Counted from the first letter of the stretch, positions 666 to 50,835 are shown. The stretch: 64,000 nt of DNA from Spironucleus salmonicida (GCF_000497125.1 NC_090604.1:62001-126000); one strand, 5' to 3'. Translations and numbers: made by a program. Notes: a model not told the origin generated them from the sequence alone.

Positions 666-2318
666 TCACTCCTTTATAGAATTTAATATTGATTTTTAGT
701 CAACTACATTTTGAAGGCCTTAAATAGTTATTTCATTATTACTTAAAATATCTACATGATTATTATTACCCACACTTCTTTTTCTTTTTTAAGTTATAAA
801 AATGGCAGTACCTACAACACCACCAACAATAACTAATAAACATATTATGATACCCACCATAGCACCTTAACCAGTTTTATTTACATTTTCAACGCATTTG
901 CCATGATTCAACGAATAATTTTTGGAACATGTTTAACATGTATCAGTACTGGTACAAACCTCACAATTCTCCATGCATTACTAACACTGGCCACCATTTT
1001 GTTATTATTTAAAGAATTAACCTAATGAGCAAGTTTCATCCGCCTAACTTTAATAAGCTATACATTATTTTTCTTCAGTCAAAACAAAATCATCTTTACA
1101 TGACATACATGAACTAGCACTGACACAGGTTTTGCAATTCTATGGGCAGCTTTAACATTCACTGCTCCCCTAAATACTTAAACAATACTGTCCATTGGGA
1201 CAAATTTATTCCGATGAGCATTAAATAACTGGTTATTTTTAGCATATCCCATTTTCTAACAAATACCCTTCAAAACACTTATAGCATCTTTTCTCATTAA
1301 TACAATTCGCACAACCAATAGAACAGTTTAAACACTCATATTTTTCACCAACAAAATACCCATCGAAGCAGTTATCGCAGTGAGATGAAGACGTGCAGTA
1401 CTCACAGCGTTTATCACATTTCTAGCACGTTCCTTAAAACAAAACAAAATGGGGAAGACACTTAGAGCACGCTCTATTGATATCAGCCACCATGCAGTGA
1501 TCTGGAAGTTCATAGCACTTATTTCCATAGTGCGTGTCGACACAATATTAGGTGTCTGCACAAGGATTAATGTCGTTACAGTAGTCGTATTAGCAAGTAT
1601 TCTTCCCAGAGGCTAAAGAAACGCTCATATGAGGCTGGCAAAGTTCACACTCAGTTTCAGATTTGCAGATTCTACATTTTGCTCCGCATGAGGTGCACTT
1701 GCCATTTTTGAGGAAGTAGCCGTCAATGCAGATTTCGCATCTACCATTAATAGAGCAGTTCTTACAGTATGCGGGACAACTTTCACAGGCTTTGTTAATT
1801 AAAACCGAGCTCAAGTTACACTGCGTGCAGATTCCATCATTTGTGCATTCAGAGCACTTACTAGGACATTTCACGCACTTTCCATCCTGCAGGCTAAAAC
1901 CGGAGAGGCATACTTAGCACAGATTTCCGTCCGTGCATTTATTGCAGCCTGGACTGCAAGCTGAACATGTTAAATCAGAATTTAGATAATACTTCGATTG
2001 GCACTGACTGCACGTGTTTGCGTCAGTGCACAGTTCGCAGTTTCTAGCGCAGCTGAGGCACTAATTTCTATCCAAGAAGAATTTTGGCTTACACGTTGTG
2101 CAGGAGCTGGAGTCTGAACAGAGCAGGCAGTTGTATTCACACTTTTGGCATGAGTTTTTATGTTTGAAGTGTCCGGGAAGGCAGTTCACGCAAATATCAG
2201 GTGTTTCGGGCAAGCACTCGGCGCAGTTAAAGATGCCACAAGTGACGCACCGCGGGCCAGTTATAGGGCACACTGTGGTGACGGGGCAGATATTCTCAGG
2301 GCACATGTAGTTGGCCAT
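666..2318 (-). CDS. Cysteine-rich (CXXC-repeat) type I membrane protein, VSP/CRMP-like, ~550 aa
   Basis: Code-6 ORF joins track fragments 2061..2348 and 1590..1874 (same frame). Dense CXXC repeats, C-terminal TM (GAMVGIIICLLVIVGVVGTAIFI) followed by KRKR, ends GAGTGA. Start chosen at caaaATG 2318; the in-frame ATG at 2348 is an alternative. Confidence 0.9.
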
Positions 2319-3359
2319 TTTGAAAAAAAATGTTTTTGCGAATACCATTTAATAGTACTGAATAATAATAAGTATTTTAAGCTAAGTTTCCAGCAATTGT
2401 AATAAATAAACGATTGAAGAAGATTGCATATATTTTGGTTTTGTAGCTTAAGATGTAGGCAAATAATACTGTTGCGATAAAAATATTATATTACGTATTT
2501 AGTTTTAGATATGTTTCCATATTAATCCAAAAACCAAAAATCTGCAAGCGCCTAAAGTACTTTAAAATGAATCTCAACTTCCGGTTATTAAATGAGATTT
2601 TATCCGCAGTTTTACTTATGAATAATGGGTAGTTAGTATTTCGGAAAAAATACAATGAGCGTCTGGCAAAACTTAGCAATAAGCTGAAGTGCAGAGAAAC
2701 TGGGGCTCAGCGCGCTAGAGACTGTGTGGCGTTCATATTAGCCAAAGGCTGCAGGACGAAGGCCCACTTTGCGTTATCCAACTGGCCAATTTTGGTATCA
2801 TCCTGCGCGGCCAGTAACAATGGCACTAAAGCTCTGAACATCCCTATTCTACGCAAAACTTCATCTAATGCGGATTAGTCTAATATTCCAACCTAAAATA
2901 AGCATAAATATCACAGTCTAATATGAATAACCCCGATGAATACCAATGGTGTATATTATTATATATTATTATATATTTCAAGTATCGTTATTTTCGTAGA
3001 GAAAATTGAAACCGTTTTTAAATTATAAAAGTTACTCCTAATTATTATGAAATATATCAGAATTCTAGAAAATTTTATCACCTTTAAAAGTGATTTTACG
3101 CATTTTATACGATTAGTTTAACGGATAGAAAAATTCATAAAAAGATTCTCCTCAATTGCTACTACTTTTGGTTATTAAAACCAACTTTGCCCAATTTTGT
3201 TACCGAACCTATATTCTTGGAAAAACTATACTATACTTGAAATCCCAGAAATGGATAATACATTCACTACTGATAATATACCCAAATCGGCCCGAAACTT
3301 CGCAAATCGAATCAGCATTTCAATCAGGTTTCCGCACAATCCGCCCTCCACTCCAGTCA

Positions 3360-4631
3360 ATGCTTGTCCTCCTCCTGCAAGCCACCTGCCAGCCGATCGG
3401 CTTCGACATCGAGAGCCCCACACTCGCCGACGCCGCAATGCGCGTTTTCGTCACCAAGCAGGGAATCGAGCGCTACTGCACGCGCAACATCAAGAACGCC
3501 ATTGGGACGATCCAGGGCTCCCTGTCCGCCATCGAGGTCAACTACGCGGTCGCCGGCATCGGGATCCAGCTTAAAAATGGGAGAATCATAGAAATCGAGC
3601 TCAACAACATGAGCGTTTTCCTGCATAGCAGCTCCTCCACGATCAAGGTGTCCGACGTCCTGATGAACATCATCTTCGAACTGAAGCTCGAGCAGAAGAC
3701 GTACCCGTATCTCTACGACACCGGGACCATGCAGCTGGAAATCAGCGATTTCACCATTTCTACTTTAGCAACCGTGGAGATTCCCGATGAGTGCAAGAAC
3801 AAGTACAAGATCGCGACAAGGTAGACTATCGTAAGCGTCGACGACTTCAAAATTTAGTTCAAGTCCAATTACGAGGTGCTGCTGAACTCGATCAGCGTGT
3901 TCCTGACGAGCTACCTGAAAGACCTGCTCAACGGTTCACTGGGGCAGGACATGGGCCAGAAGCTCATGGATGCGCTCATGAAGCTGCTGATCGAGCAGAC
4001 GTACCTGCCGCGCATGAGCTACAAGCAGTATGTGGGCACTGATTAGCGCTACTTCAACGGCCTGGAAATCGGCGAAAACTTCATAATGGTTAACTCCACG
4101 GGGCAGCGCTGCTTGTACTAGCACCCAACCAAGTAGCACTGCAAGGGCAATTTGGATGAAAAAGTGACCACCCCGCTCACGTACTTCACCAACCACCACG
4201 TGCAGTACCAGATCGAGAAGCTGGCGTTCAACTCGGGCTTCAAGCTGTATTTGGAAGAAGAGCGCAAAATTGATAATATTATTATAAAGAATATAACGCT
4301 GGTTAAATTTCACAACACGGGTGCGAAGGTCGAGGTGACGCTGGACGTGGGCGGCGCCTCGCACACGCTTACCTACCTTGAGCCAGTGGTCTTCGGTCTG
4401 GAGCGCATCAAGGACAACGTGGACTTCGGGCGGTTCGGGGTGCGGCTCACGAACTTGATTAGTAATAGCACGCTGACATCCGAACAGCTCAAGTCTCTCG
4501 CCGACTACTTCGATAGCTCCTACCCCATGTACGACATCGCGTACGCCAGCGCACTGGGCGTATCGGCCAAGCGGGCGGAGGTGGTGTACCTGGACGCGAA
4601 CTGGATCCACATCGGCAGCTTTATTGAATGA
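3360..4631 (+). CDS. BPI/LBP (TULIP-fold) lipid-binding protein, secreted, 423 aa
   Basis: C-rich motif then ATG, short hydrophobic N-terminus [21 protein letters not shown] resembles the BPI N-terminal RITQKGLDY motif. Fragments 3156..3824 and 4152..4631 join through TAG codons. BPI-like proteins are known in diplomonads. Confidence 0.75.
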
Positions 4632-6399
4632 GTTTTTGGGTTAGTTTGGCCGAGGCGCCTTTTGGGGCTTCGGCGTCGGGCGGTGCGTTTTAGCAGCAAG
4701 GGTAGCTAAAAACGTTGCTCTGGGCGACTGATGCGAATTTTCAGAAATGAGTGTCCGAAATAAAATTATAATTTAATCTATAACGCAGATTTTGAGTATA
4801 TTCTACGGCTTTTAATATGTATATAAGAAAGTTTTCAGTTATGAAAATATTTTGTCTTTTAGTACAGTTTAGCTAGCCACAGGCTGACCGTGCAGCTAAG
4901 GGTATGCTTTTGCCGGAATGCAGAGGTGAAGATTTCGGCGTTGCAGCGTGGGCACTTCGCTCTAGTGCGATAGCAGATTGCACCTGGTGGGAAGTTCGGG
5001 CCTTAGAGTAAAGTGGAAGCAAAATATATCTAAACTCTTATATAATAAGCTATTATACAGTTTCAATAATGATCTTTACCATCATCGTCTGAGCCGATTT
5101 TCCGAAGTGGTGGGAGGCATTTGAGGATTAGTATTATTAGAATTCATCAGCTTCTGTGAAAAATGGAGCAGTATGTGCATGGCAAAACTGGACTCTGGTG
5201 CTGTCAATTTCAATGACTATTTACCTGTTTAGCTTTGCACCTGCTTTTGCGTCTGCCTTTAGGCGGAGTAATGACTTAAAGTAGTTTTTTGTAGTATGCT
5301 TCCTAAAATGGGGTGAAGGCTTTAGACTGGGATAGCTAAATCTTGTAAAGAAAAGTTTGGAAGCACTCTATACGGGCACGGTTTTTGCACGCCTTGCAGT
5401 TCAGTAGTCGAGTCTCATCTTTACAGCTACAAGATATTTGCCTAGGAAAGGTAAGATCTTTACACGATGAACAGGAGAAGTCGCTTGGGATATTCGCCGC
5501 GCAATACATATCTGATAAACAGCTATTGGCCTTGCCAGGTTAAAATTCCAGTGGGTACATTTTTGATTTTTAATATGTTTTGAAATCTATATGTCTTTTG
5601 GTTAGATGACGCTTACTAATACCAAATTATAATTAAAATAAATTATAATCGTAAACTAGATCGGAGAATATTTAAGTAAAAGATATATAAACTCGTAACA
5701 ATACGGCATTGTTGGAAACAAACCACAGTAACTTGGATATCAGAACTTAGACCTTTATTCTGGCATTTAGGAGCATATTTTACTGTGTGTCTTGCCTATG
5801 GCAAAGCCAGTGTCTGATCGAACCCAGCCAGCGGTGTTATCAGAATAACTTGAGCTAGCATCCCGTGCTCAAGCTTACGCCCTATTGATAAGGATGGCTA
5901 CCGCCTCAGCCCATCTTGCATATTCATTAGTTTTAGACTATCTGCACATCTCCTAGTATGATACCATGCAAAGAGGCACCCGCGGTATTTTAACATATTA
6001 GATAGGCTGAGCTTTCCCAGCTTGTCGAACACGAACCGGCTGGCCCTCTTTCAGGTATCCACCAGCTCGCTTAACCGACCTCAGCCATTTTGGAGGATGC
6101 CGCGCATCGGCCAACAATTTACTGCAGACATTCATACTTATCACCCGAGCAGTATTATTCTAGATGCGGTATCCCCGTGTAGGTTAAGCCCCGCGTGGAG
6201 GTACATCCAAAAAGTTATCACTGGTGGCAGACATATCGCAGGCACCAAAATCAGATATACCAAATTAAGGATCATTGCCTCCAATCCTAGCACCCAGCAC
6301 CAGTCGAATATGGTCACAGCCGCCAGTCCTTGCCTGGGCCTTTCGGTTGCATTTTGAGTACGATGTCTTATATTATTATATACATATCAACTCCACACA

Positions 6400-6744
6400 A
6401 TGCCCGACACCGCCATCCCGATTTCCTACAGGAGCATCTTCCTGATATCCTTCCTGGTGTAGATAGCGACCTGTTCTATCGTGCAACTCATCAATTGCAC
6501 TATCCTGGCGCTCCGCGTGCACCGGCACCAAAAGAGCGTGGTAATATTCTCGGTGCTGGTGGTGCTGCCCTTCGCGCTGCAGATCCTCAAGATCCTGATA
6601 TCGTCCGTTATGTTAACCGCTATCGTGCTGCTCTCCTACGAGAACAACAGCCTCTTCGCCAACCTCACGCTCTACAAGCTGCTCACCATCAACGTCGTGA
6701 CAGTGCTCCTGCAGCTGGCGGGCCAGTTCATCTCAGCAGCATGA
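6400..6744 (+). CDS. Small multi-pass membrane protein, 114 aa, unknown function
   Basis: ctccacacaATG start, high GC3 codon usage, MPDTAIPISYRSIFLISFLVQIATCSIVQLINC... with 3-4 hydrophobic segments. Confidence 0.65.
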
Positions 6745-7299
6745 TGAGCGTGCTTACGAGCAGGGAAGGTACGGATTGGGAATATTGACTGGAGCTACTT
6801 ACGGTGGAACCTTACCGGCTCCAGAAATAGCTGGCAGGCGCATCACCACTAGCGTCAATAAACGGTAAACTGCATGTGATGCCATGGAGAATTCCAGACT
6901 GGATATGTTCCCAATTCTACTTCATGTCCTCGCCACTCTGATCCGTTGACTAGGACGCGCGTTGGCTGGAGATACAACGATGTCATCTTCAGTGATACAG
7001 ATTAATCACTGCTCTATATTATTTGCATCGCCCACGATTCCCAGAAGCTGCCTAACCAGGATACTGGGTGCTCGGTTCGTTATCGAGGGAGTTGGAGCTA
7101 ACAAGGCTGACGATTCTCCCAAACTTCCATGGAAACTGCATTCGATGGCTTTAGACTGCCAAATGGTGTCTCCGTATATTAGGGGCACCGGGTATAATTT
7201 TCATCCTAAATCTAAGTCATTTTCCTCGCACTCTGGTACAGTTTGGCTGTTTGGTCTCAAATCTTAACCAGTGATGCGCGCAATCTGCTAAAATTCCAG

Positions 7300-8228
7300 T
7301 CACTCAACCTGCACTTGAGTCGCACTGCCGCCAGCAGCCTTCTTGTGCTTCTTCACAAAGTAGTAGGCGAGCCCGCCACCCACGACGGCAGCGACTGCGA
7401 CGACACCTAGCACGATTCCTACAATCGCACCACTGCTCAAGCGAGTGTTCTTGCTCTCCTCTGTGGCTTCAGGATCGGTTGGCTTTACCGAGGGATCTGG
7501 GTTGATCGGTGGGTTCGGTTTTTCTGGTTCCACCGGGGGCTTGGGGTCCTCCGGCTCCACAGCGGTCTCTAGGGCTACGCACAGCTTGCCGAGCATCTCG
7601 AAGCCATCCTTGCACACCTCACACTTTCCCCCGTCCAGCTTCAGGTTCTTGAGGCACGCCCCGCAGCTGCTACCACCGTCTGTATCATTACAGGTGGCGC
7701 AGTTGGCGACGTCCTGGCACTTGCAGGCGCTGGTTATGTCATCAGCACATGTAGTAGCAGTACTGCCATTGCAGTACTGTCCATCCATGGGAGTGCAGGT
7801 GGCGGTGCACTTACCATCGGTTGTGGTGAGCGGGCAGCCGTACCGCTTTTGCTCTGGACGAAGAATTCCGCTGACGTGCAGATGTCGCACCCCTCCTGGC
7901 ACTTTGCGCACGTCTTGGTCTTGCTGTCGCAGTAGCCCAAGTCACGGTACCGGCACTTCTTGTTCGTTGCGCACTAGATGAGGCTGGGGTCTATTTGACT
8001 GCACTTGCCATTGTTCACGAAAAGGTTGTTGAAGCACTCTATGCAGGCACCATCTTTGCAGATCTTACACTCTTCGGTTGGTGTAAAATCTGTGCAATTA
8101 CAATCTACGTAGGTAGGGCTATTTTATCCACACAGAATACAGTCGGTATCCCCTGAAGAAAAGGATGGACATAGATAGTTGGCACGACACCTGTTCTCGT
8201 ATTCGTTACATTACTCTATTGGTACCAT
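7300..8228 (-). pseudogene. Cysteine-rich membrane protein (CRMP1-like) with a frameshift near 7840-7865
   Basis: The N-terminal CXXC half (MVPIEQCNEYENRCRANYLCP...CQEGCDICTSAEF) and the C-terminal half (GCPLTTTDGKC...Pro-rich stalk...GAIVGIVLGVVAVAAVVGGGLAYYFVKKHKK) lie in different frames. Confidence 0.75.
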
Positions 8229-9182
8229 TTCTGTTTTAGATAGTGTAATAATTGTATTTCCGTGCAGGTTAAGTGAAATTCAGTTTTTAGTCTAAACTTA
8301 GTAATAGTACATTATGGTACATATCTTATACTAAATTAGGAAGAAAGCAGTATGCAAAAAGTAAAATAATGTTTAAAATTATAATAGTAAGAAACTTAAA
8401 AATCTGTATAATATACTTTAAATTGCATCACAGACATAAATATGCGCGTTTTTAATCTTCACTTATTCTGTTCTTGTAGGTCTTCCTTTACTTACTATTA
8501 GTAAGAATTAGTTAGATTAACCTAATTGCAAAGTATTCAGCACATCATGTATACGAATTTCAATGATTTCTTGTTTTAGTTTAACTTAATTATTATCATG
8601 ACCAAGCCTATTAAAACATTTAAAATTTCAATTTTTTATACAATAGTTAGCTAAACTCAGCTAAGAGGAGATAACACTAACATACTTGCCATCAAATCCA
8701 GTTTCTATCAGAATTTCAGATGATAAATATTTATTATGCCATAACGGTTTCCAAAAATAGTAAATATTATAATAGTAATAATATATCAACACACCCAGAA
8801 AAAAGCATTTAGTGATTTTCAAAAAATAACAATTTTATAATTCGCGCTGCAAACCATAAAATAACGAACTTTCAAAACGCACTAAATACTAATTTGGCGG
8901 CGGGAACTGAATGGGCACTATATACTCCTTTTATTCCTGCTTATCGACTTGTACTGCTTTCGAGCATGAGTAGAGTGACCATTTAAACGCATAATTACTA
9001 GAAATGAACTCCAGATTGCGCAATAATTGATTTAAGCTGCATCCCTGATTTGCAAGTCTCTATAATCCTCAATCATCAAATAAATGCAAAGCTATCCAAT
9101 TTCTGCCAGTGTGCGCCTAGCTCACCCATATGCGAGTCCGTTAAGGAACGCTGCCGTACTTCACACCCAAACTAATTTATGC

Positions 9183-10880
9183 TCACTCCATCTCGCAAAT
9201 CAGCCGATCCACCGCATCGAGGTCCACGTCTCCGTCTACATCGAGCCCATCCACGCCCATCACCAAATCCATCTCGCCCTCCAAAGCCAGCCGCTCGTAC
9301 TCCAGCTAGCTCTCCTCAGCCAGCTGCTAGATCTGAACCACGCTGTTCTGCATGCATTTGTCGTCAATTTCCTTCAGTTTCTCCTCCAATTCGCCTTCGT
9401 TTCCGCCCTAAATTCCACCAGAACTGCTCAAAAAGCGTGCTTTTTCACCACATCCAAGCGCGTCGCTGCTGAGAAGCATTTTTTCGACCCGCTCAAGACG
9501 CTCGGAAACGCAGTCGCGTTCCCTTTCGAGCTCGAAAACACGCGTTTTCAAGCCACTCATCTGCTGGTTCACGATGAAGTCGCTGAGGCCCTAATCGAGG
9601 TCCATGAGCTAGTTTTGGACCTCCATTTGCATGTTTTTGCTGTCGATTTGGCTGTTTTCGATGACGGAAACGCGTTTTAGGAGCGACGTGAAGGCGCCTA
9701 CGACTTCGGTCTGGAATTCCTCTAAAGCGGCGCTCAAATCGTCGATGTTTTGGTCGTTTTTGAACATTTGGATTTGGTTCTGAAACTGTGAAGAAATTGT
9801 ATTAATTTGAGCCAATTGGTCACTTTTCACGTGATTTTCGAGGTCCTGCTGCGTCGATTTTTGCAGTCTCAAAAATGTTACTTTCCAGAGGTCTGCGAGC
9901 TTGTTTGCGCCAAAACCACCGAAAATGTAAATTTCAGATAAATTTGCGCAATATACACTGTCATCAGTATTATCATATAATAATATATTATTGCAATTAA
10001 ATTCTAATTATAATTTTTCTACGGTACCGTAGAATTTTTTGTTATTCTATATAATACAAGAACCAAATGCATGTCTAGCAGGAATTACCGTAGAATCCAT
10101 TTATTTTACGGTAAAGTCGTTCAAGTTTATGACATACATATCATTTAATACTGAATTGTCTCCAGAACCACCAAAAATCACCATTTCATCCGTAGAAATT
10201 ATGTGAGCCATATGTTCAGTTCTGGCAGGTATAATAATGTTATTATTCAAAGAAACGCATTTTGCTGTTTAACTGACTGGATCGACGACCCAGATATCAT
10301 TCAGGCGGCCGACAGCCCCTTTTCCTCCGAAAACAATCAATTTTCCGTCGTTTTCGCACATCGACATCCCGTAACGACCACAAATTCCGTCAATTTCGAG
10401 CCTTTTCCACTCCAATTCAATCAGATCCAATTCATAAAAATCGTCGAAAAGGGCTTAAATTTGCGGATTTTTGCCGCCGAAAACGTAAAGTTTTGACCCG
10501 ATAATCGCAGCTGCGTGGCCGTATCTGCCGGGAGGGCTGTTTTTGGTGTTCAGAAGACCCCAAGAAGTCCCGTTGAAAAGCCAGGTGTCGCTCAGGAATT
10601 TGTTCTGCGAATCACCGCCGAAAAGGACGAATTTAGAGATAGAAAACTGCGTTAATGTGTGACCCCTTCGTACTGATGGCGTCAAATTAGAGCGAGGTTT
10701 TGGTAACCACTGCAGTTACGATGAATTTTAGATGTCGAGCGAGTTCAAGTCTGAGTGGTAGAGCTACGAGAACCCGCCGAACGAAAAGAGTGTCGTATTG
10801 ATATATGCAAGGGCCGTTGAGGAACGTGGGACCGGTGCTGTCTGTGGCATGCGGGTCAGCGAATAGGCTAGCGCGTCCAT
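9183..10880 (-). CDS. Kelch-repeat protein with C-terminal coiled-coil, 565 aa
   Basis: Kelch motifs LFSFGG, RRGHT...FVLFGG...LSDTWLF, GRYGHAAA...LYVFGG, IYIFGG...DLW, then a heptad region; ends GAGTGA. Confidence 0.9.
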
Positions 10881-11645
10881 TAAATTTTAAGATGTGGAAG
10901 GTAAATTTTTAGATATAGTAATATATAATAATATAATTAGTTGACCTAAAAATAATGGAGTGAAATGTGAATAAGATGAATATAAGAAGTAGGAGGAGTA
11001 TGAATGAAAGAAGAATATAAAAAGGTGATAAGTTGAACATTATGACAAATACTGATGGGATTGATAATAAAAATAAAAATTGTAGAGTGTTTGGTAGTGC
11101 ATAAGAAATTTTGTTAGATAAGTGTTGATTTTAATTATTATAGCTCTCATTGTTTTAATTACCGCTAATATGGTTTCCTTGTTTGATTATCAGTCGGAAT
11201 AAATTATAAACTTATGCTATCAAACATTGGATTTGTTAATATTAGTAATTAATTAGTGTTGCTGTAATCATATTGAAAGTTCAAACTATAACATTGGTAG
11301 CTAGTTTATAACAAATATAACGGGATCATAATAAATTTTTATTTTTATATAATAAATAACTATCATAAAAAAAGTATAAAATACAACAGTTTTGTTATCA
11401 TATAGTATTCTAAAATAAATTATGTAATATAGTATTGATAAGTGATAATCATGATTTTTGAAGCTACTACTTTATTACTTGTAATCCTTAATATTAATAG
11501 TTGTGTTTATTATTAATAAATTGAAAGTAACAGTAATAAATAAGTTTAAAACTTTACTAAATCTCTTGTTTAAACAGATGTTATTGTTATGAAAGCTCTA
11601 GTGAAAGTATATGAAACAAATAATCTTATATATTTACAAAATTTC

Positions 11646-12095
11646 TCACTTGACTTTCACAATTTCACCTCGTAACACTTTCTCCCAAAATAAAATCTTT
11701 TTAGCAATAATACTGTTTTCTCTTTAAATTCTTGTAATTTTAGAAAGCGCTTGAACTTCATTAATCTCATTTAAGCGTTCTAGTCGTAGCCTTTAAATAG
11801 ATTTTTTAACTTAAAATAGTGTTTGCTATAAGGTAGTATTATCGAGTTTAAACTATTTTAAATGCTCGTTTAATACTTAGAAATTTTCAGTAATATAATT
11901 TGTAAACTCATCGAAACTGAGGTCGGTATTAACTTCTAAAACGGATAAGGAAACATTATTTAAGTCTAAATTTAAGTCATCAGATAAAAGTGAGCTAGAA
12001 TCAGAACAACAGAGTTAAGATTTAGTTATGTTGTAAAGATTCTACTGTATAACATCTTTGTCTAATAAAAGCTCCTATAATGTTTAATCCGACAT
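11646..12095 (-). CDS. Hypothetical coiled-coil protein, 149 aa (zipper-module family)
   Basis: Open in code 6 from MSDQTLQELLLDKD to KITRIQRENSIIAKKILFWEKVLRGEIVKVK, ends AAGTGA. Confidence 0.75.
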
Positions 12096-12329
12096 TATCT
12101 AAAAATCAAATTATAATCCAGATATAATATGATTTTCATGTTAAAATTATTTTTACTTACAAAAATTAATATAAATTATATATAGAATTATATTACTAAT
12201 TTATTTTATTTTTTGATTAAATATTATGATTATTATTATGATTAAGTTATTTTAATTACCAAAAAAATTAAACTTTAATCAGATTATCTATACAATATTT
12301 AATAATGGAATCGTTTAAAAACCTGTAAA

Positions 12330-12815
12330 ATGTCACTTGCCGAGATGCTTAAAAATTTTGATGATAGATAGTTTACAAAGCCAGATCAACAGTAAGTATA
12401 AAGTAGTAATATTCTAGAAGCACTACTTGGAAATATTGATACTTCTTCAAGTGAAGATATTGTAGAACATGTAAAGTCTTATTCAGTAGAAATAAATTCA
12501 CAATAATATGAGAATTTATCGTTAAAATGTGATGATATTTTATAGTAGCTATCTAATCCCTTAAATGCACCAAAATCAGATATTTCCTCATTATCTTAAA
12601 ATTAAGAAAGCATAGGAATTTTAATAGCGAAAAACTAACAGGAAAATTAAATTCTGTTGCAGTAGGTTAAAATTCTAGGTGCATCTTTGGCTCAAGTTAT
12701 TTAATAGAGAAACTAGAGCCCAATAATGTAGTAAATTGCAATTTTAGAATAGTAAAATTAGTTTTTAACATAGAAAGTTAACTAACTCGAAAGTATCATA
12801 ATGAGACGAAAGTGA
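12330..12815 (+). CDS. Hypothetical coiled-coil protein, 161 aa (zipper-module family)
   Basis: aaaATG MSLAEMLKNFDD...IAILEQQNQFLTQKVNQLESIIMRRK, ends AAGTGA. The C-terminus is clearly similar to gene A at 17085. Confidence 0.8.
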
Positions 12816-13508
12816 AAGTTGCGTTATATAATTATTATATTAAATATACTGTATTTGTAAATTAAACATTTTGTATAAAGAAGTTTCGCGGAACCCATCA
12901 GCATCATCGTCGTCGTCCAGCCCGATCTGCTCCAAACCACCAGGCCGCTGCCGTCAGTCCACCCTTCTGGCGCCAAGCCTATGTTTCACGCCGGTACAGA
13001 AACTCGCGCACTGGCTAGAGCGCTTCACCCAAACGTCCATGGCCTGTCCTGCCAGAATCATAGGTTCTCAGCCCGAGAAGCTGTCCTAAGCTGGCACCAC
13101 GACGCCAGCAGGGGTGTATCTCGATCAACGCCTTTGTATCGCTGTTCAGCGTAACCTCTGATGCAGATATACGTTTCAAGTTACACTGGGGCTGGACCAA
13201 TAGTGACAGAGAGGGTCCATGCGGTTATCCGGTGTAGCTAAATTACAAATTTTAGGATTATTATCCAATACTATATATTCGATATCCAGTTCCTCACTAC
13301 TGAGGTCGTATATTTTTCTTCAATATATTCAATTTATCGAGACGTTGATTTCCAATATTAATTATATTATGGTATGAATTATACTTTCGTAGAATTAAGT
13401 TTCCTTATTAGTCCGTAAGATTTGCGATATTAATACACTTCCCAGTTTCGGTTTTTATATTACTACTAAAATAAGCGGAATCCTATTAACAAAAACAGCT
13501 TCGTAAAA

Positions 13509-13949
13509 ATGGCAGAAAACTTCGAGCTCACAGTCATCAACGATGATCTGAAGATGATATTTGAAGAAGACGACACGGCAGTCGAAGACATTCCATAGGA
13601 GATCCAACAAGCTCTCTCCACCCAAGAGATTGTCCAGCCAGACCGCTTCATGAAGCTGCTCGAATCGCAGAAGAGCGCATACGACCCCCAACTACTGCAG
13701 CACACGACAGACATCAAGAAGATCGCGGCGCAGACCACAGGGCTAGTAGATCTGGTGACCCAGCTTACCGCCAAGGTCCAAAGCTAGCAGGATACCATCG
13801 TGTCTCAGCAAGGCTGCCTGAACGACGCCATCATACAGGTCAACACACTAAATGACATCGTCAACCAGGTGATCGCTCAGAATAACCAGCTTAGTAGCAA
13901 CTTTTCCACGGTTGTGCAGAGGCTGCTGGCAGTCGAGCAGCGGAAGTGA
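13509..13949 (+). CDS. Hypothetical coiled-coil protein gene C, 146 aa (copy 1)
   Basis: aaaATG MAENFELTVINDDLKMIFEEDD...VVQRLLAVEQRK, high GC3, ends AAGTGA. Confidence 0.8.
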
Positions 13950-15744
13950 AACTGTTTGTAATTTTAGCATGACATTCTATCTGAACTTATAATATTATAA
14001 TATCCAAACCAGTCCATTAATTGAATGCCATATTTCGATCGTCTGGTCTCTCGTGCTGAACTGCGGCTAGGATAATTAACCAGAGGCTACAAATTCCGAC
14101 GACAATAAATATATAACAGCGGTACTGCGCATTCATAATTTTATAATCCAGATATCAATTACCAATCTTGAGCACAGCATCCCCGCCGAAATTCTGAACC
14201 TATTGAGGTGACTTTGATTAGAGAACTAACATGACAAATTACTGTATTTCCCACATATTTATGCGATCGGATTTCGGCTCTCTTGAGGCAAACGAGTGCA
14301 GCTTATATACCATTTGCCCATTCGGCACTCAACGTGAAGGAATCTATCTCAGCTGCATGATGCAATCGAGTATGGTAATTAAAATCAATATAGCCGTCTG
14401 AGGAGATTCAGGTCCACCAAGGCAATATCACATTTTTATCCCATCCAACTAATTGTATCTTGCTGTCCCCTGGTGCGACCTATCGTCGTTAGGCCGGATA
14501 TTATATTACAAAGTATGCGAGTCCGTAAACCTTCATCGGTTAGCGCGTCTCATGCTGACCCACATTACCAGGGGTGTCCGGAGTCCATGGTCGATATATT
14601 ATACCCAGCACCCAGCGTTACTACACTGAATATTTCAGGGTACCCCATTTTCTAGATCTGGCAGATTCTCTGGATGTTAGATCTTTCTGGTCAGAACAAT
14701 CTGCGAGTATGCGAGGTAGACAGCAGCCCAGACATCCATGTATTCTCATTTCCTCTACCCAAGAATGCTACCAAGGTATTTTTTCGGGCATGTTCCGTTC
14801 TCAGCATCGGTATGTCATCTTATATGTGATGTACCTTTGATTTTACTGAGCAGAGCTCTCTTCCGACATTAATCTGGAGGTCATGAACGATGCTTTCGGA
14901 CGACAGTTTTATATTGACTCCATTAGATCTCCCTAGAATACTCCCAAGATTATCCTCAAAAAAGGCCTGGCTGACCGTGCGGACTGCTTGACGATGATGA
15001 TGGTGCTCTAGATTACGGAAGCTGGCTGATCTCAGAGAGCTTGTAATGGATAGCGTTAGTATCAATTTTTAGATTATTTCAGCGATTTTGTGTCTAGTTC
15101 TCCAACTCTATGTTGCAAAAGTGAGGTTCTCGAGCTGTATGGTGTGTAGATTAGAATGCAGCTATAGGAAATCAAAAAATCAATCTCACTAGACTGCTAA
15201 AGATTGAGAACCTACGCCCATTCTGCGTGAACTCATCCTTAATATGTATGATACTGTAACAGAAGGTTCTCATAGATCTACTTCTATAGGGTCCCTAAAT
15301 TGGTTGTTGTTCGGATTAGCTTACCAAATGAGCATTTATACAGAAGAATAGTGCCAGATATAATTTCTTCAGATGAAAGTATAGGTGACTCATTACCTTT
15401 TCAGGTGTCTACGCCCGTGGTAGGCGCACTCTCAAGTATCGTTACTGAATATTGCGGATTGACTTTCCGTCGACTGTAGTTCGATATATTGATCGTAGTA
15501 GAGGACATTATGAATCTGTAATACCTTAGCTGCCAAGAAGTGGGCTCGTGCTTTTCAGAAGATGGATTTTTCAGTTTACTACGGACGACGGATTGCCGCA
15601 CATACTCAGCTACCACGATATGGTTCTGCTTGGAGATATATTTTCCAATAGAATAGCGCCCTGGTATATCCTACACTGCTGTGCTACGCGAGTATAAGGC
15701 ACCCACGCGCATGCGCTGGTGAAGGAATGAGAATATCTAATCTA

Positions 15745-16299
15745 TCACTCGAAGCCGAAGCTGCAGAAGAACTGCTCGGAGAACTCGTCGTCCAGCAGAG
15801 TGTCCCGGGGCGTGACCGAGCAGCTTTCAACGCGGGGCGAGACCGACAAGGAGTCGAAGTCTGGCCGCGAGAAGGGCAGCGCAAGCTTGGGGATTACGGG
15901 CATAGCTGAACGGGCGATTGCCTTCGCATTCTGAAAGGCAACACGCAGAACCTGGGTGTCGTACTTGCGGGAAAGGCGCGCGCGGACCATGTCAAGGGAG
16001 GGCTCGAAACCAGCGGCGGCGGCCTCTTGGACCATATGCTTCACGACCGCGGCATCGGAGGCGCTGAGAGGCTCCTATTGACGGCGCTGGAAGGTCTCGC
16101 GGTACCAGTGGTACAGACGGGACTTGGTGACGCCCATGATGTCGGCGGCGTGCTGCCAGGGCACGGTGACGCGGGAAACCTCCTGGGAGAGTAGCGCGTG
16201 GTCGCGCAGAAGCGTAGAGGCGGTGTGGACCGAGAGACTGCGGAGCGCCTGGGCAATGGCGGAGAGGGCGGACGTCTGGTCGAGCGAGGCGCGAGGCAT
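15745..16299 (-). CDS. Putative helix-turn-helix DNA-binding protein gene B, 184 aa (copy 1)
   Basis: Mirror of 17614..18168; contains WQHAADIMGVTKSRLYHWYRETF. Confidence 0.8.
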
Positions 16300-16453
16300 T
16301 GCGGAGTGGTGCACTCAGATGTGGATATATACCATCGGAACCTACGCTTTGCCAGTTTCTGGTTTCGGTAGATTTTCGTGTCAGCGTATCCGGAAGTCTA
16401 GGGAATTATGGCCGGATGCCGATGGATACGCGAGTGGAGTGGGCCGTAGAATC

Positions 16454-16684
16454 TCACTGCCGCCTTGCCACGAGCGCCTCGAGCTGCATGATCTTCTGGT
16501 TCAAGAACTGGTTCTGCTGCTCCAGCACCATGATGCGCTACCGATACGCGTCCCCACCCGGGGCCTGCACCTGCGCGAGCTGTGGTACTTGCTGTAAAAT
16601 TATTTGAGATTTATTGAAATGAGGTGGTCTATAACTTAACAAGTTTATTTAATATATATCTAACAATTATAATAAATTCATCAT
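16454..16684 (-). CDS. Chimeric ORF, 76 aa: spacer-derived N-terminus fused to the gene A C-terminus
   Basis: cccaaaATG MMNLLQLLDIYQINLLSYRPPHFNKSQIILQQVPQ reads in frame into LAQVQAPGGDAYRQRIMVLEQQNQFLNQKIMQLEALVARRQ. Confidence 0.5.
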
Positions 16685-17084
16685 TTTGGGTTAATTTTTG
16701 TTGATAGCATTTTAATAAAATGATAATTGTGATATAAAATTTGTATTATACATTTTAAACTAAGTAATATCAAATATGAATTTAATAGAATTATAATAAT
16801 TTTTAACTGGATAGATAAAATATTGCATAAATTATAATAAGCTAACTGAAAATATAAACTAAGGAATCTGCTGACAATCAACAAGTAAAATCTTAACTAA
16901 TTTTATAATTTAAGTTATCTAAATACTTAATTATTAGTTTTTAGCGACATCAGATATTATTATTAATATTTTTTAATTGTAATAATCTAGTGTTAAACAA
17001 AACCTTAGTATCCTAATATTGTTCCTCTTATAATTTTAAACATAATATAATAAAATCATATACATAAAAATACTATCCGCGAAA

Positions 17085-17459
17085 ATGTCAAGCGGCCTGT
17101 CCCACACCGCAACGGAGCCTAACCACAAGGTTAGCTTCAAGGAGGTCGAGGCACGTATTGCTACTGCTGTGTCCCAGCTGGAGGTACATCTCACTGAAAC
17201 TAGGTCCCTGGACGAGAAGCTGGCGGTGGTTGAGCGCTAGCAACAGAAGTAGTAGGCAGCACTAGCGCAGAGCGCCCAAGTATCCCAAGCACTATCCAAG
17301 CAGGTGGCCCAGGCCCAGACGGCGTTAGCCCATCTCGCGCAGGTGCAGGCCCCGGGTGGGGACGCGTATCGGTAGCGCATCATGGTGCTGGAGCAGCAGA
17401 ACCAGTTCTTGAACCAGAAGATCATGCAGCTCGAGGCGCTCGTGGCAAGGCGGCAGTGA
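17085..17459 (+). CDS. Hypothetical coiled-coil protein gene A, 124 aa (zipper-module family)
   Basis: tccgcgaaaATG MSSGLSHTATEPNHKVSFKEVEARIATAVSQLE...LEQQNQFLNQKIMQLEALVARRQ, ends CAGTGA. Confidence 0.85.
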
Positions 17460-17613
17460 GATTCTACGGCCCACTCCACTCGCGTATCCATCGGCATCCG
17501 GCCATAATTCCCTAGACTTCCGGATACGCTGACACGAAAATCTACCGAAACCAGAAACTGGCAAAGCGTAGGTTCCGATGGTATATATCCACATCTGAGT
17601 GCACCACTCCGCA

Positions 17614-18168
17614 ATGCCTCGCGCCTCGCTCGACCAGACGTCCGCCCTCTCCGCCATTGCCCAGGCGCTCCGCAGTCTCTCGGTCCACACCGCCTCTACG
17701 CTTCTGCGCGACCACGCGCTACTCTCCCAGGAGGTTTCCCGCGTCACCGTGCCCTGGCAGCACGCCGCTGACATCATGGGCGTCACCAAGTCCCGTCTGT
17801 ACCACTGGTACCGCGAGACCTTCCAGCGCCGTCAATAGGAGCCTCTCAGCGCCTCCGATGCCGCGGTCGTGAAGCATATGGTCCAAGAGGCCGCCGCCGC
17901 TGGTTTCGAGCCCTCCCTTGACATGGTCCGCGCGCGCCTTTCCCGCAAGTACGACACCCAGGTTCTGCGTGTTGCCTTTCAGAATGCGAAGGCAATCGCC
18001 CGTTCAGCTATGCCCGTAATCCCCAAGCTTGCGCTGCCCTTCTCGCGGCCAGACTTCGACTCCTTGTCGGTCTCGCCCCGCGTTGAAAGCTGCTCGGTCA
18101 CGCCCCGGGACACTCTGCTGGACGACGAGTTCTCCGAGCAGTTCTTCTGCAGCTTCGGCTTCGAGTGA
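17614..18168 (+). CDS. Putative helix-turn-helix DNA-binding protein gene B, 184 aa (copy 2)
   Basis: ccactccgcaATG. Track fragments 17599..17838 and 17869..18168 join through TAG. HTH-like AADIMGVTKSRLYHWY, acidic/aromatic tail, ends GAGTGA. Confidence 0.8.
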
Positions 18169-19963
18169 TAGATTAGATATTCTCATTCCTTCACCAGCGC
18201 ATGCGCGTGGGTGCCTTATACTCGCGTAGCACAGCAGTGTAGGATATACCAGGGCGCTATTCTATTGGAAAATATATCTCCAAGCAGAACCATATCGTGG
18301 TAGCTGAGTATGTGCGGCAATCCGTCGTCCGTAGTAAACTGAAAAATCCATCTTCTGAAAAGCACGAGCCCACTTCTTGGCAGCTAAGGTATTACAGATT
18401 CATAATGTCCTCTACTACGATCAATATATCGAACTACAGTCGACGGAAAGTCAATCCGCAATATTCAGTAACGATACTTGAGAGTGCGCCTACCACGGGC
18501 GTAGACACCTGAAAAGGTAATGAGTCACCTATACTTTCATCTGAAGAAATTATATCTGGCACTATTCTTCTGTATAAATGCTCATTTGGTAAGCTAATCC
18601 GAACAACAACCAATTTAGGGACCCTATAGAAGTAGATCTATGAGAACCTTCTGTTACAGTATCATACATATTAAGGATGAGTTCACGCAGAATGGGCGTA
18701 GGTTCTCAATCTTTAGCAGTCTAGTGAGATTGATTTTTTGATTTCCTATAGCTGCATTCTAATCTACACACCATACAGCTCGAGAACCTCACTTTTGCAA
18801 CATAGAGTTGGAGAACTAGACACAAAATCGCTGAAATAATCTAAAAATTGATACTAACGCTATCCATTACAAGCTCTCTGAGATCAGCCAGCTTCCGTAA
18901 TCTAGAGCACCATCATCATCGTCAAGCAGTCCGCACGGTCAGCCAGGCCTTTTTTGAGGATAATCTTGGGAGTATTCTAGGGAGATCTAATGGAGTCAAT
19001 ATAAAACTGTCGTCCGAAAGCATCGTTCATGACCTCCAGATTAATGTCGGAAGAGAGCTCTGCTCAGTAAAATCAAAGGTACATCACATATAAGATGACA
19101 TACCGATGCTGAGAACGGAACATGCCCGAAAAAATACCTTGGTAGCATTCTTGGGTAGAGGAAATGAGAATACATGGATGTCTGGGCTGCTGTCTACCTC
19201 GCATACTCGCAGATTGTTCTGACCAGAAAGATCTAACATCCAGAGAATCTGCCAGATCTAGAAAATGGGGTACCCTGAAATATTCAGTGTAGTAACGCTG
19301 GGTGCTGGGTATAATATATCGACCATGGACTCCGGACACCCCTGGTAATGTGGGTCAGCATGAGACGCGCTAACCGATGAAGGTTTACGGACTCGCATAC
19401 TTTGTAATATAATATCCGGCCTAACGACGATAGGTCGCACCAGGGGACAGCAAGATACAATTAGTTGGATGGGATAAAAATGTGATATTGCCTTGGTGGA
19501 CCTGAATCTCCTCAGACGGCTATATTGATTTTAATTACCATACTCGATTGCATCATGCAGCTGAGATAGATTCCTTCACGTTGAGTGCCGAATGGGCAAA
19601 TGGTATATAAGCTGCACTCGTTTGCCTCAAGAGAGCCGAAATCCGATCGCATAAATATGTGGGAAATACAGTAATTTGTCATGTTAGTTCTCTAATCAAA
19701 GTCACCTCAATAGGTTCAGAATTTCGGCGGGGATGCTGTGCTCAAGATTGGTAATTGATATCTGGATTATAAAATTATGAATGCGCAGTACCGCTGTTAT
19801 ATATTTATTGTCGTCGGAATTTGTAGCCTCTGGTTAATTATCCTAGCCGCAGTTCAGCACGAGAGACCAGACGATCGAAATATGGCATTCAATTAATGGA
19901 CTGGTTTGGATATTATAATATTATAAGTTCAGATAGAATGTCATGCTAAAATTACAAACAGTT

Positions 19964-20404
19964 TCACTTCCGCTGCTCGACTGCCAGCAGCCTCTGCACA
20001 ACCGTGGAAAAGTTGCTACTAAGCTGGTTATTCTGAGCGATCACCTGGTTGACGATGTCATTTAGTGTGTTGACCTGTATGATGGCGTCGTTCAGGCAGC
20101 CTTGCTGAGACACGATGGTATCCTGCTAGCTTTGGACCTTGGCGGTAAGCTGGGTCACCAGATCTACTAGCCCTGTGGTCTGCGCCGCGATCTTCTTGAT
20201 GTCTGTCGTGTGCTGCAGTAGTTGGGGGTCGTATGCGCTCTTCTGCGATTCGAGCAGCTTCATGAAGCGGTCTGGCTGGACAATCTCTTGGGTGGAGAGA
20301 GCTTGTTGGATCTCCTATGGAATGTCTTCGACTGCCGTGTCGTCTTCTTCAAATATCATCTTCAGATCATCGTTGATGACTGTGAGCTCGAAGTTTTCTG
20401 CCAT
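19964..20404 (-). CDS. Hypothetical coiled-coil protein gene C (copy 2)
   Basis: Mirror of 13509..13949. Confidence 0.8.
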
Positions 20405-21082
20405 TTTTACGAAGCTGTTTTTGTTAATAGGATTCCGCTTATTTTAGTAGTAATATAAAAACCGAAACTGGGAAGTGTATTAATATCGCAAATCTTACGG
20501 ACTAATAAGGAAACTTAATTCTACGAAAGTATAATTCATACCATAATATAATTAATATTGGAAATCAACGTCTCGATAAATTGAATATATTGAAGAAAAA
20601 TATACGACCTCAGTAGTGAGGAACTGGATATCGAATATATAGTATTGGATAATAATCCTAAAATTTGTAATTTAGCTACACCGGATAACCGCATGGACCC
20701 TCTCTGTCACTATTGGTCCAGCCCCAGTGTAACTTGAAACGTATATCTGCATCAGAGGTTACGCTGAACAGCGATACAAAGGCGTTGATCGAGATACACC
20801 CCTGCTGGCGTCGTGGTGCCAGCTTAGGACAGCTTCTCGGGCTGAGAACCTATGATTCTGGCAGGACAGGCCATGGACGTTTGGGTGAAGCGCTCTAGCC
20901 AGTGCGCGAGTTTCTGTACCGGCGTGAAACATAGGCTTGGCGCCAGAAGGGTGGACTGACGGCAGCGGCCTGGTGGTTTGGAGCAGATCGGGCTGGAAAA
21001 TGACGGTCAAATCTAGTGATGGTTTATAAAAATCTTAAGAATTTTTTATAAAATACAAAATGATAAAAAACCATTTCTTCAC

Positions 21083-21607
21083 TCATCCCTATAAAAGACA
21101 CACACTCTTCTCCACGCTCTTACTGGTTAATAATAAACTTACAATTACCCCATAAAGCGCCAGTGCCTCTCCAAAAATCATAACAATAATCATTACTACA
21201 AATAAGCTAGGTTACTGTGCAACACATTTGCAGGCAGTTTGACCTGCAACCCCAATAGCAAGACCAGCTGCTAAAGCGGAAAACCCGGTACAAAGACCTG
21301 CAGCAAAATGGGCATAAGCGATGTATAAAGGCATGCCAAGAGGATATTCTTAAACCTTGGCGTTTATGGTAAGCATAGTTATGAGTCCATATATAGAAAG
21401 AACACCTGCCATAATAACTGGCAAGGTTAGTTTTGTTAAAGGGGTAATATTAATAAGACCCCCAGCAGCCATTCCTGAGCCTGCCTTAGCTGTACCAAAG
21501 GCAGCACCAAAAGCTGATAGCGAAACTGCTATAAATTCACCAAAATATGACCAGAATACACCAGATGTAGGACAAGCTTAGAAATTATGTAGCTATGACG
21601 ACTCCAT
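21083..21607 (-). CDS. VMA3: V-type H+-ATPase 16 kDa proteolipid subunit c, 174 aa
   Basis: GAAFGTAKAG, LPVIMAGVLSIYGL, HFAAGL...LAAGLAIG, AQQPSLFV, and FGEALALYG with the essential TM4 glutamate. Confidence 0.97.
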
Positions 21608-22185
21608 TTTTATGATATGATGGAATTGGAATGGTGTAAAATGTAAATAATATCTATATAATGTATAATAGTATAGATTATTCAGTAAAATTAAATTTAA
21701 AAAATAACTTAGTATCAAATATAAATCTTACTTTATAAATATAGGAATACTTTTAAAAACGAATGATAACAAGTAAATAAATACAAAACAATCAACTGAT
21801 ATCTTACAAATTCTTGAATAATTTGTTTTATTTAAATGAAAAACATATCAAAAGTAAAACCAATTTAAATAAAATGCATAGTACTTTTTTTAACTTAACT
21901 CATTAAAGTTGAGTGATCCAGTAATAAAGTTTACTTTTAAAGCATATATTCATATTATTATTTATAAACATATATTAATTATATTTTTAAAATATCCTCA
22001 CTACGTCTTACCTACAATAGTTATTATAAATATTAGATATTTATCATATAATATTCTACTTATCTAACTAAACATTTGAAAACTATATAAAAATTTTACG
22101 ATATTGAAATATAATTAGTATATATTATTTTTTCATTAATTTTTATCTATAAAATTATCATTTAATACTTATACTATCCGCGAAA

Positions 22186-22560
22186 ATGTCAAGCGGCCTG
22201 TCCCACACCGCAACGGAGCCTAACCACAAGGTTAGCTTCAAGGAGGTCGAGGCACGTATTGCTACTGCTGTGTCCCAGCTGGAGGTACATCTCACTGAAA
22301 CTAGGTCCCTGGACGAGAAGCTGGCGGTGGTTGAGCGCTAGCAACAGAAGTAGTAGGCAGCACTAGCGCAGAGCGCCCAAGTATCCCAAGCACTATCCAA
22401 GCAGGTGGCCCAGGCCCAGACGGCGTTAGCCCATCTCGCGCAGGTGCAGGCCCCGGGTGGGGACGCGTATCGGTAGCGCATCATGGTGCTGGAGCAGCAG
22501 AACCAGTTCTTGAACCAGAAGATCATGCAGCTCGAGGCGCTCGTGGCAAGGCGGCAGTGA
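22186..22560 (+). CDS. Gene A, second full copy
   Basis: Same sequence as 17085..17459. Confidence 0.85.
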
Positions 22561-22714
22561 GATTCTACGGCCCACTCCACTCGCGTATCCATCGGCATCC
22601 GGCCATAATTCCCTAGACTTCCGGATACGCTGACACGAAAATCTACCGAAACCAGAAACTGGCAAAGCGTAGGTTCCGATGGTATATATCCACATCTGAG
22701 TGCACCACTCCGCA

Positions 22715-23269
22715 ATGCCTCGCGCCTCGCTCGACCAGACGTCCGCCCTCTCCGCCATTGCCCAGGCGCTCCGCAGTCTCTCGGTCCACACCGCCTCTAC
22801 GCTTCTGCGCGACCACGCGCTACTCTCCCAGGAGGTTTCCCGCGTCACCGTGCCCTGGCAGCACGCCGCCGACATCATGGGCGTCACCAAGTCCCGTCTG
22901 TACCACTGGTACCGCGAGACCTTCCAGCGCCGTCAATAGGAGCCTCTCAGCGCCTCCGATGCCGCGGTCGTGAAGCATATGGTCCAAGAGGCCGCCGCCG
23001 CTGGTTTCGAGCCCTCCCTTGACATGGTCCGCGCGCGCCTTTCCCGCAAGTACGACACCCAGGTTCTGCGTGTTGCCTTTCAGAATGCGAAGGCAATCGC
23101 CCGTTCAGCTATGCCCGTAATCCCCAAGCTTGCGCTGCCCTTCTCGCGGCCAGACTTCGACTCCTTGTCGGTCTCGCCCCGCGTTGAAAGCTGCTCGGTC
23201 ACGCCCCGGGACACTCTGCTGGACGACGAGTTCTCCGAGCAGTTCTTCTGCAGCTTCGGCTTCGAGTGA
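22715..23269 (+). CDS. Gene B (HTH-like), copy 3
   Basis: Same protein as 17614..18168. Confidence 0.8.
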
Positions 23270-23401
23270 TAGATTAGATATTCTCATCCCTTAAAAATCT
23301 CTTACGCCCGCACAGTGTAGCATTTCTTATCAATAACACAACTCTAATTCTTGTTTAAATAAAATTATTTATAACAAATTATAAACAAAATATTAAATAC
23401 A

Positions 23402-49488: not shown

Positions 49489-50835
49489 TCACTCAGCAGT
49501 CATAACGCCAGAGCCGAACCTGACCTCGGAGCCCTTCTCGGCTTCGCTGCTCGCAGCGGGTGCAGAGCCGGTAAGGATCATCTGGATTTCCTCCTGGGTC
49601 TTGCCCTTCGTTTCAGGGGTGGTAAAGAGCAATACAGCGGTTGTGACTCCCATGACGATCAAATATGTAACGAAGGGAGACCATGCGGCAGCGTTGGTAA
49701 GAATTGGGAAGAGAACGACGACAAAGATGTTGGGGATGTAGTTGAAGCTGAGCAGGATTGAGGATAGGAGGGACTTGGCTTCAACGGGGAAGAGCTCGGA
49801 GGCGAAGACGAAGAAGATGGGACCGGGACCAACTTCGAATCCAATGATGAATATAACAGAAGCTGTAATGAGAAGGGCGGTGTTAGAGGTGGGGAGGATG
49901 TAGTTGATCATGAGAGCAACCTGTGCAGCGAAACAGACACCGACACCGCCGAAGAGAAGGATCTTGCGGCCGAGCTTCTCGATGAAGGCGAGGGCGCCGA
50001 GGGTAGCCACAAAGTTGACACCGTTGATAATGATGGAACCGAATACGGAAGACAAAGGATGGGTAGTGCCATCTGCATTCTTGAAGGTCTCCTTGAAGGT
50101 CTCAGTGGAATAGACGATAACGGCGTTGATACCGGTGCACTGCTGGTTGAGGCCGAGCATGACAGAGAGGATGAGGACCTTGAAGTACTTCTTCTCCTTG
50201 AACAAAAGCATGGGAGAGATTTCCTTCTCCTCTCTGGGCTTGACGTCAGGTACAAAGAAGAGCAAGACAAAGCCCATGAGAGGCCAGATCAGGGTGACGA
50301 TGAAGTTGATCCACCAACCGTTATAAGTATCTTGATAAGTACGGATGGCAAGTAAGACTAAGGAGGCAACCAAGATCCCAAGGGTGACGTTGAATTGGAA
50401 CATGACACCGAGGAGACCTCTCTTGCTGGCCTCAGCGTGCTCACCCACGATGATGATGCTGGGCTGCTAGAACAATACAACGAAGTAGCCTGCAAAAAGC
50501 CTCATAACCAGCCAGTAATAGACATTGAAAGGGATGCAGAGGAGAACATTGAAGATGGCAGCACCAGCAGCACCGACTAAGCCGGTCTTCTTGTAGCCTA
50601 GCCAGCTGACAATAGGAGCGAAGGTGAGAGAAGCTAAGAGGAAGCCTACCAGGGAGGCGATAGAGAGATAGGGTAGTAAAGTTTGCACGTCACCATCAGC
50701 GGCTGCAAAATTAGCTGAAGTGCCAATAGCCATATAGTAAAGTTTTATGATGTCAGAAGAAAAGTTTGCAATGGTGAAGCCGAGCGTCTCGGCGGCAAGC
50801 GATTGGATTGCGAACAGGATTCCGAATGAAACCAT
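49489..50835 (-). CDS. MFS sugar (hexose) transporter, 448 aa
   Basis: QQCTGINAV, EKLGRK, GPGPIFF...SELFP and PETKGKT sugar-porter motifs; two track fragments join through TAG. Confidence 0.95.

Follow-up and report, generated by a model that had tools for sequence, protein, structure and literature searches.

A near-perfect, gene-bearing palindrome in Spironucleus salmonicida with GC content graded by repeat copy number

We report that a 64,000-nt stretch of Spironucleus salmonicida DNA (GCF_000497125.1 NC_090604.1:62001-126000; hereafter the window, in whose own positions features are given) carries a near-perfect palindrome with gene-bearing arms, and that this is probably a real inverted segmental duplication of native genes, older than the identity of its arms suggests and homogenised by repeated GC-biased ectopic gene conversion. 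Specifically, GC content tracks the number of copies and steps within a gene that is cut by an arm edge, and these two features favour an old, converted repeat over a very recent duplication. The one mismatch between the arms tells when they were last copied rather than when the duplication arose.

Structure of the palindrome

A preliminary description of this DNA had proposed a palindrome with a constant coordinate sum of 33913 and one substitution, and base-by-base comparison bears this out: 12916-16579 pairs without gaps with 17334-20997 (99.97% identity over 3664 bp), and pairing is lost beyond the edges at 12915 and 16580. The sole mismatch, 16144 G versus 17769 T, lies in an Ala codon of gene B and is synonymous. 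In a self-BLAST of the window the arm pair covers 3675 columns at 99.86% identity, ragged ends included. The parts of the locus and the genes next to it are as follows (GC3s, GC content at synonymous third codon positions).

12916-16579: left arm, 3664 bp, delimited by base-by-base comparison
17334-20997: right arm, reverse complement of the left arm, mismatch at 17769
16580-17333: spacer of 754 bp, of which about 490 bp are unique and AT-rich and 264 bp are common to the third copy
22171-23287, plus strand: third copy of genes A and B, 1117 bp, 60% GC, direct to the right arm
12916-13229 (mirror 20684-20997): outer GC-rich non-coding block, 56% GC
13230-13508: AT-rich stretch upstream of gene C within the arm, 28% GC
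18181-19884 (mirror 14029-15732): non-coding stretch between the 3' ends of genes B and C, 1.7 kb, 42% GC
17085-17459, plus strand: gene A, 124 aa, Gln/Ala-rich, straddling the right inner edge, stop in AGTGA
22186-22560, plus strand: gene A, second whole copy
16454-16579, minus strand: gene A 3' fragment of 41 codons plus stop, innermost in the left arm
17614-18168, plus strand: gene B, right-arm copy, 184 aa, N-terminal 132 residues modelled as all-helical
15745-16299, minus strand: gene B, left-arm copy
22715-23269, plus strand: gene B, third copy
13509-13949, plus strand: gene C, left-arm copy, 146 aa, stop in AGTGA
19964-20404, minus strand: gene C, right-arm copy
12330-12815, plus strand: L0, single-copy AT-rich paralog of gene A, 161 aa, GC3s 0.21, adjoining the left arm on its outside
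21083-21607, minus strand: V-ATPase proteolipid (ATP-synt_C) gene, GC3s 0.25, between the right arm and the third copy

From its outer to its inner end each arm holds a 314-bp GC-rich non-coding block, 279 bp of AT-rich DNA forming a probable promoter, gene C, a non-coding region of 1.8 kb, gene B and, finally, the 41 codons that end gene A; the 1778 bp of non-coding DNA that accompany genes B and C in each arm are 42% GC. The preliminary description had listed gene B, gene C and the approximately 1.8 kb of relatively GC-rich non-coding DNA correctly and had missed the gene A codons. It had also called the whole 754-bp spacer unique, which is true of 490 bp. According to the self-BLAST, 17070-17333 recurs at 22171-22434, within a longer repeat of 17070-18186 that stands in direct order at 22171-23287 and whose edges are close to the gene A start and the gene B stop. 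The unique part of the spacer is 17.5% GC over 16595-17069 and the 264 bp also present in the third copy are 57% GC. Complete versions of gene A occur at two sites only, one straddling the right inner edge and the other in the third copy. A genome-wide search at the DNA level placed arm sequence at the two arms and the third copy alone (three of three candidates scored), and a local repeat search at the junctions gave short AT-rich matches only.

GC content and copy number

Third codon positions follow the number of copies: GC3s is 0.83 (179/216) for codons present three times and 0.68 (154/225) for those present twice (Fisher p=0.0006), while the single-copy paralogs L0, L007, L010 and L011 have 0.21, 0.33, 0.19 and 0.28, respectively. 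Non-coding DNA is ordered likewise, with 17% GC in the unique spacer, 42% in two-copy and 52% in three-copy DNA, and non-coding arm DNA ranges between 42 and 56% GC versus 17-25% outside (13230-13508 being the exception). Within gene A, GC3s rises at the arm edge from 55/82 before it to 36/39 after it (p=0.003), and at fourfold sites from 26/45 to 16/18 (p=0.02); such a step is not predicted by a recent breakpoint. Moreover, where gene B and L007, a distant paralog and no proper outgroup, have identical residues, 35 codons end in G or C only in gene B and seven show the reverse (p=1.5e-5), which suggests that the GC shift required many substitutions.

GC change points fall within 30 bp of six of the seven repeat edges, whereas random centres match in 0.8% of 2000 trials; at the seventh edge the GC level continues up to the edge of the third-copy tract. 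On the left the GC island ends 29 bp from the outer edge of the palindrome. Elsewhere, we sampled approximately 446 kb of the genome, namely C9:1-256000 (246,177 bases read, window included) and 100 kb each of C5 and C6. Among 500-bp segments with a GC content of 50% or more, 24 of 24 in the C5 sample and 33 of 53 in the C6 sample lay within local repeats. A toy fixation model fitted the non-coding GC with a bias of about 0.7 and the codon GC with about 0.8-0.85; it ignores ploidy and population fixation and was not used as evidence.

Contigs from sequencing runs

Four of the eight listed sequencing runs were compared over 16520-22150: X1 and X2 (DNA), X5 and X6. X1 and X2 are from one sample, which is possibly the source of this DNA. 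Their contig ends (16550-17099, 17070-17363, 17334-18186, 18157-20997 and from 20968) equal the unitigs predicted by a 31-mer graph of the window, and the left flank and the flank beyond the third copy are the loose contig ends in the DNA runs. Depth over the two-copy part of the arm was 2.6x (X1) and 2.8x (X2) that of single-copy contigs. At the mismatch site 17769, X5 has T and X1, X2 and X6 have C. None of the four runs lists a further substitution in the arm, which speaks against polishing having concealed many differences. An X6 contig extends 20 letters beyond the right outer junction. No contig in the four runs spans the whole structure.

The AT-rich part of the spacer and 21596-22150 were uncovered in both presumed RNA runs (their RNA nature is a guess, no listed run being recorded as RNA), and this was not used as evidence. 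One base at 22128, within a T run, is absent from the X1 contig and present in X2.

Competing explanations

Several observations weigh against an old repeat kept alike by conversion. A fifth single-copy paralog, L008, has a GC3s of 0.53, and the split made in gene A gives a weaker trend in the same direction in the control paralog L0 (21/118 then 12/39, p=0.11). The 279 bp at 13230-13508 lie inside the arm and are merely 28% GC, a kelch gene for which no duplicate was found reaches GC3s values of 0.61-0.69 at its ends, and 20 of the 53 GC-rich segments in C6 lie outside local repeats. Of the six coinciding edges, five are either gene ends or junctions whose sharpness a recent event would produce too; the informative edges are the left outer edge and the step within gene A. 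For two neighbouring inverted repeats the four inner edges match GC steps and the four outer edges are off by 72-351 bp. Homology beyond the edges of the palindrome is weak, with 6, 47, 24 and 5 of 300 natural controls scoring as high. As to the contigs, the three-copy part has a depth of 4.3x in X1 and 2.2x in X2, meaning that depth, which is GC-biased, is distorted and cannot serve as an exact measure of copy number; the junction contigs reach 30 letters into the arm, one below the bridging rule; and X1 and X2 come from a single sample that may be the source of this DNA.

Unlikely, though far from negligible, is a very recent inverted duplication that arose through a template switch or a staggered-break inversion and copied DNA whose GC content was high beforehand for some other reason, e.g. 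a regional recombination hot spot or earlier conversion involving the third copy alone. The lone mismatch across 3664 bp, the weak homology beyond the edges and the existence of GC-rich single-copy genes are in keeping with it, and so are the edges, of which the left outer and right inner ones look original and the other two new, the pattern of a single duplication-inversion. However, a recent event offers no reason for the GC3 step at the arm edge in gene A, and it leaves unaccounted for the end of the GC island so near the left outer edge as well as the 68% GC3s of two-copy codons and the 42% GC of non-coding arm DNA; the junctions, too, are without clear microhomology and present no obvious ancestral join. 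The preliminary description had offered recent duplication and conversion side by side. Conversion fits better, given that GC tracks copy number and steps in gene A, and a very recent duplication fits less well.

We give little credence to the assembled order being one of several isomers, with some cells possibly having the 2.8-kb parts in direct orientation as a result of an inversion that involved the left arm and the third copy. A contig graph with these copy numbers allows four walks, with the long arms inverted in two and direct in two, so that the inverted order rests on the assembly. Against this, inverted pairs are common in this genome, and usual long reads are long relative to repeats of 1.1-3.7 kb.

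It is highly improbable that the palindrome is a regulated inversion switch in which a spacer flip alters expression. The sole attraction of this idea is geometric, in that the spacer carries the gene A 5' end and its upstream region; the arms are identical save for one synonymous base, so that a flip would leave the gene A protein unaltered, another complete gene A begins at 22186, and no recombinase-like open reading frame (ORF) was recognised among the proteins scanned.

Finally, an assembly artefact from fold-back chimeric reads, to which the near-perfect identity, the possible use of the two DNA runs as source and the lack of a spanning read would be suited, is largely refuted: contigs end at the predicted repeat edges with all junction flanks present (two at the outer and two at the inner arm end, in both DNA runs), depth is raised, both mismatch alleles are present (the T in a run from a different study) and the X6 contig passes the right outer junction by 20 letters. 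Of the artefact check that had been proposed, the part run on contigs was passed. A DNA transposon with terminal inverted repeats was considered and rejected, since arm DNA occurs at this locus only, with no dispersed copies; no transposase match was found in genes A, B and C or in 12 non-coding frames, and target-site duplication was not searched for by tool.

Proposed origin and maintenance

An old inverted duplication maintained by conversion would have arisen locally, with one of its edges falling within gene A. Breaks would then have been repaired from the neighbouring copy and mismatches resolved toward G/C, and GC would have climbed in the shared tracts, more so with three copies. The third, partial copy, 1.2 kb away, would have joined the near-identity through ectopic conversion, and the single C-to-T difference would be a recent right-arm mutation awaiting conversion. 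On this view the repeat has no switch function, its likely effect being one of gene dosage (gene A twice, gene B three times, gene C twice).

The geometry predicts three outcomes of crossing over. Between the arms, the spacer would flip with the proteins unchanged and the intact gene A 5' end would move to the other, identical arm; a crossover of the left arm with the third copy would invert a larger segment; and one of the right arm with the third copy would delete 5.1 kb including the V-ATPase proteolipid gene. Loss of this gene may select for non-crossover repair.

Genes at the locus

The window reads as diplomonad nuclear DNA in genetic code 6, with cysteine-rich surface-protein, kelch, ankyrin and V-ATPase proteolipid genes; codes 11 and 4 were tried and gave no coherent genes. 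Searches of the window for tRNA genes and Rfam families gave no match, and a sigma-70 promoter scan was set aside as not applicable to this organism. Genes A, B, C and L0 end in AGTGA, which combines the stop with the polyadenylation signal described for S. salmonicida (PMC3916229).

Gene A and L0 are paralogous (0 of 500 shuffles score as well). Gene C was tried as a paralog of gene A or L0 and this was unsupported, 147 and 190 of 500 shuffles being as good. A possible fusion gene was considered at the left inner junction, where a frame stays open through the spacer; 11 of its residues show a resemblance to L0, matched by 16 of 500 controls, and none to gene A (matched by 96 of 500). A family search assigned no family to genes A and C, none of genes A, B and C is Cys-rich or has a variant-specific surface protein (VSP) match in Pfam, and single-protein searches with genes B and A retrieved only themselves. 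The coiled-coil label that the preliminary description gave to gene C is putative.

A profile search with the gene B family finds 101 proteins, and among ten relatives looked up four are named S. salmonicida proteins and five are Hexamita inflata proteins. The preliminary label of gene B as a helix-turn-helix (HTH) protein is plausible and unconfirmed: HTH_23 matches gene B at E=0.034, below the cut-off, and six of 54 family members at E<=0.01. The structure model (predicted local distance difference test score, pLDDT, 85.7) has eight helices in residues 8-132, and its best matches are weak (Foldseek E 0.44, to the DUX4 double homeodomain; VIA Z 6.2). A search by sequence found no solved relative (best E 0.67), and all matches in an Atlas search were below 0.9. 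Gene B is a putative HTH or homeodomain-like protein.

The nearest paralogs of the V-ATPase proteolipid gene are approximately 50% identical. Along the kelch gene (9183-10880) GC3s runs from 0.63 through 0.24 to 0.69, a course that conversion leaves unexplained.

The 1.7-kb non-coding stretch

The stretch between the 3' ends of genes B and C is covered by one contig in each of the two presumed RNA runs (18182-19871 and 18181-19884; one study). It showed no codon periodicity and no Pfam, Rfam (no match at E<=1) or paralog match, its longest ORF has 127 aa versus a shuffle mean of 205, and folding of one strand over its first 1000 nt gave z -1.89. When it was treated as a broken gene, six frames with X at stops gave a single weak Pfam row (E 0.054), and one frame searched against the genome retrieved the two arms only. 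The stretch may be a non-coding transcript, gene B read-through or a decayed gene, strand and transcription being putative.

At 20700-21017 a short X6 contig points away from gene C and ends at AGTGA (21015), just beyond the right outer junction; an upstream transcript from a two-way promoter is possible.

Other repeats in the genome

In the sampled DNA at least nine inverted families are present. C9:1-256000 has three inverted pairs, which account for its total of 24,126 inverted bases, i.e. the present one, one with 6.5-kb arms at 98.6% and one with 1.5-kb arms at 98.0%; the C5 sample has eight inverted rows in about five families and the C6 sample one pair with 6.1-kb arms. The present palindrome has the shortest spacer among the inverted repeats seen, the next being 1403 bp.

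The pair with 6.5-kb arms joins 2299-8770 of the window (C9:64299-70770) to C9:47968-54449 across a 9.85-kb spacer. Its right arm, at 2299-8770, holds a BPI/LBP-like gene (3360-4631, GC3s 0.81), and a cysteine-rich membrane-protein gene at 7300-8228, apparently split by a frameshift, also lies inside the arm. A transporter-like gene at 49489-50835 (annotated by eye; GC3s 0.64) has at least ten copies on C9 and C2, at 89-96%, and the 1.5-kb inverted pair at C9:133077-144881 consists of two of them. The C6 pair (C6:626252-645775) has arms 99.7% identical, 52-61% GC and a 7.25-kb spacer. C9 also contains about 3 kb of nearly pure (ATAAT)n repeat at 11000-14000 and, at 176181-244976, a tandem array of roughly 2-kb units, 60% GC, with a gap of N.

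Comparison with known systems and significance

In S. salmonicida 19.2% of the genome is duplicated, and the duplicated regions are 44.7% GC versus 30.7% (PMC9509377); GC-rich islands with sharp GC shifts and high GC3 were left unexplained in 2007 (PMC1805757). The palindrome resembles these regions in its sharp GC shifts and high GC3. Conversion was proposed for surface-protein regions of this organism (PMC1805757, PMC9509377), while the available text of the two papers describes neither palindromes nor GC-biased conversion as a cause. A search of open papers found none on biased gene conversion in Spironucleus and none on inverted repeats, gene conversion and GC content in diplomonads.

For primate X palindromes, GC-biased arm-to-arm conversion was shown by cross-species comparison (PMC8981503). 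The likeness lies in gene-bearing arms more than 99% identical, a unique spacer and arms that are GC-richer than their flanks beyond coding DNA, and the contrast is larger here (arm 48% versus flanks 19-30%; 46% versus 41% in primates). The present case differs in being on a protist chromosome and in having a third copy, and its age and conversion are inferred only. Among diplomonads, the inverted vsp pairs of Giardia lamblia (PMC2996952) and G. muris (PMC7641422) are likewise identical inverted copies, and the near-identity of their flanks stops abruptly. They are genes for surface antigens and are separated by 2.2-3.8 kb, whereas here small hypothetical proteins flank a 754-bp spacer and GC is graded by copy number. 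The G. lamblia pairs were read by their authors as duplication plus transposition, possibly recent (PMC2996952).

The locus is ordinary for this genome, which has many like it, and is of value for its gradient from one through two to three copies, a test case for biased conversion. Tentatively, GC-biased ectopic conversion that is stronger than in primates and scales with the number of partner copies might build the GC islands of S. salmonicida, with this locus calibrating the bias, a population that may hold several inversion isomers and a 1.7-kb non-coding RNA in both arms. If conversion is indeed at work, the near-identity of such repeats would be useless for dating, codon usage in these genes would reflect repair bias and not expression, and the published GC-island puzzle of this parasite would have a testable cause.

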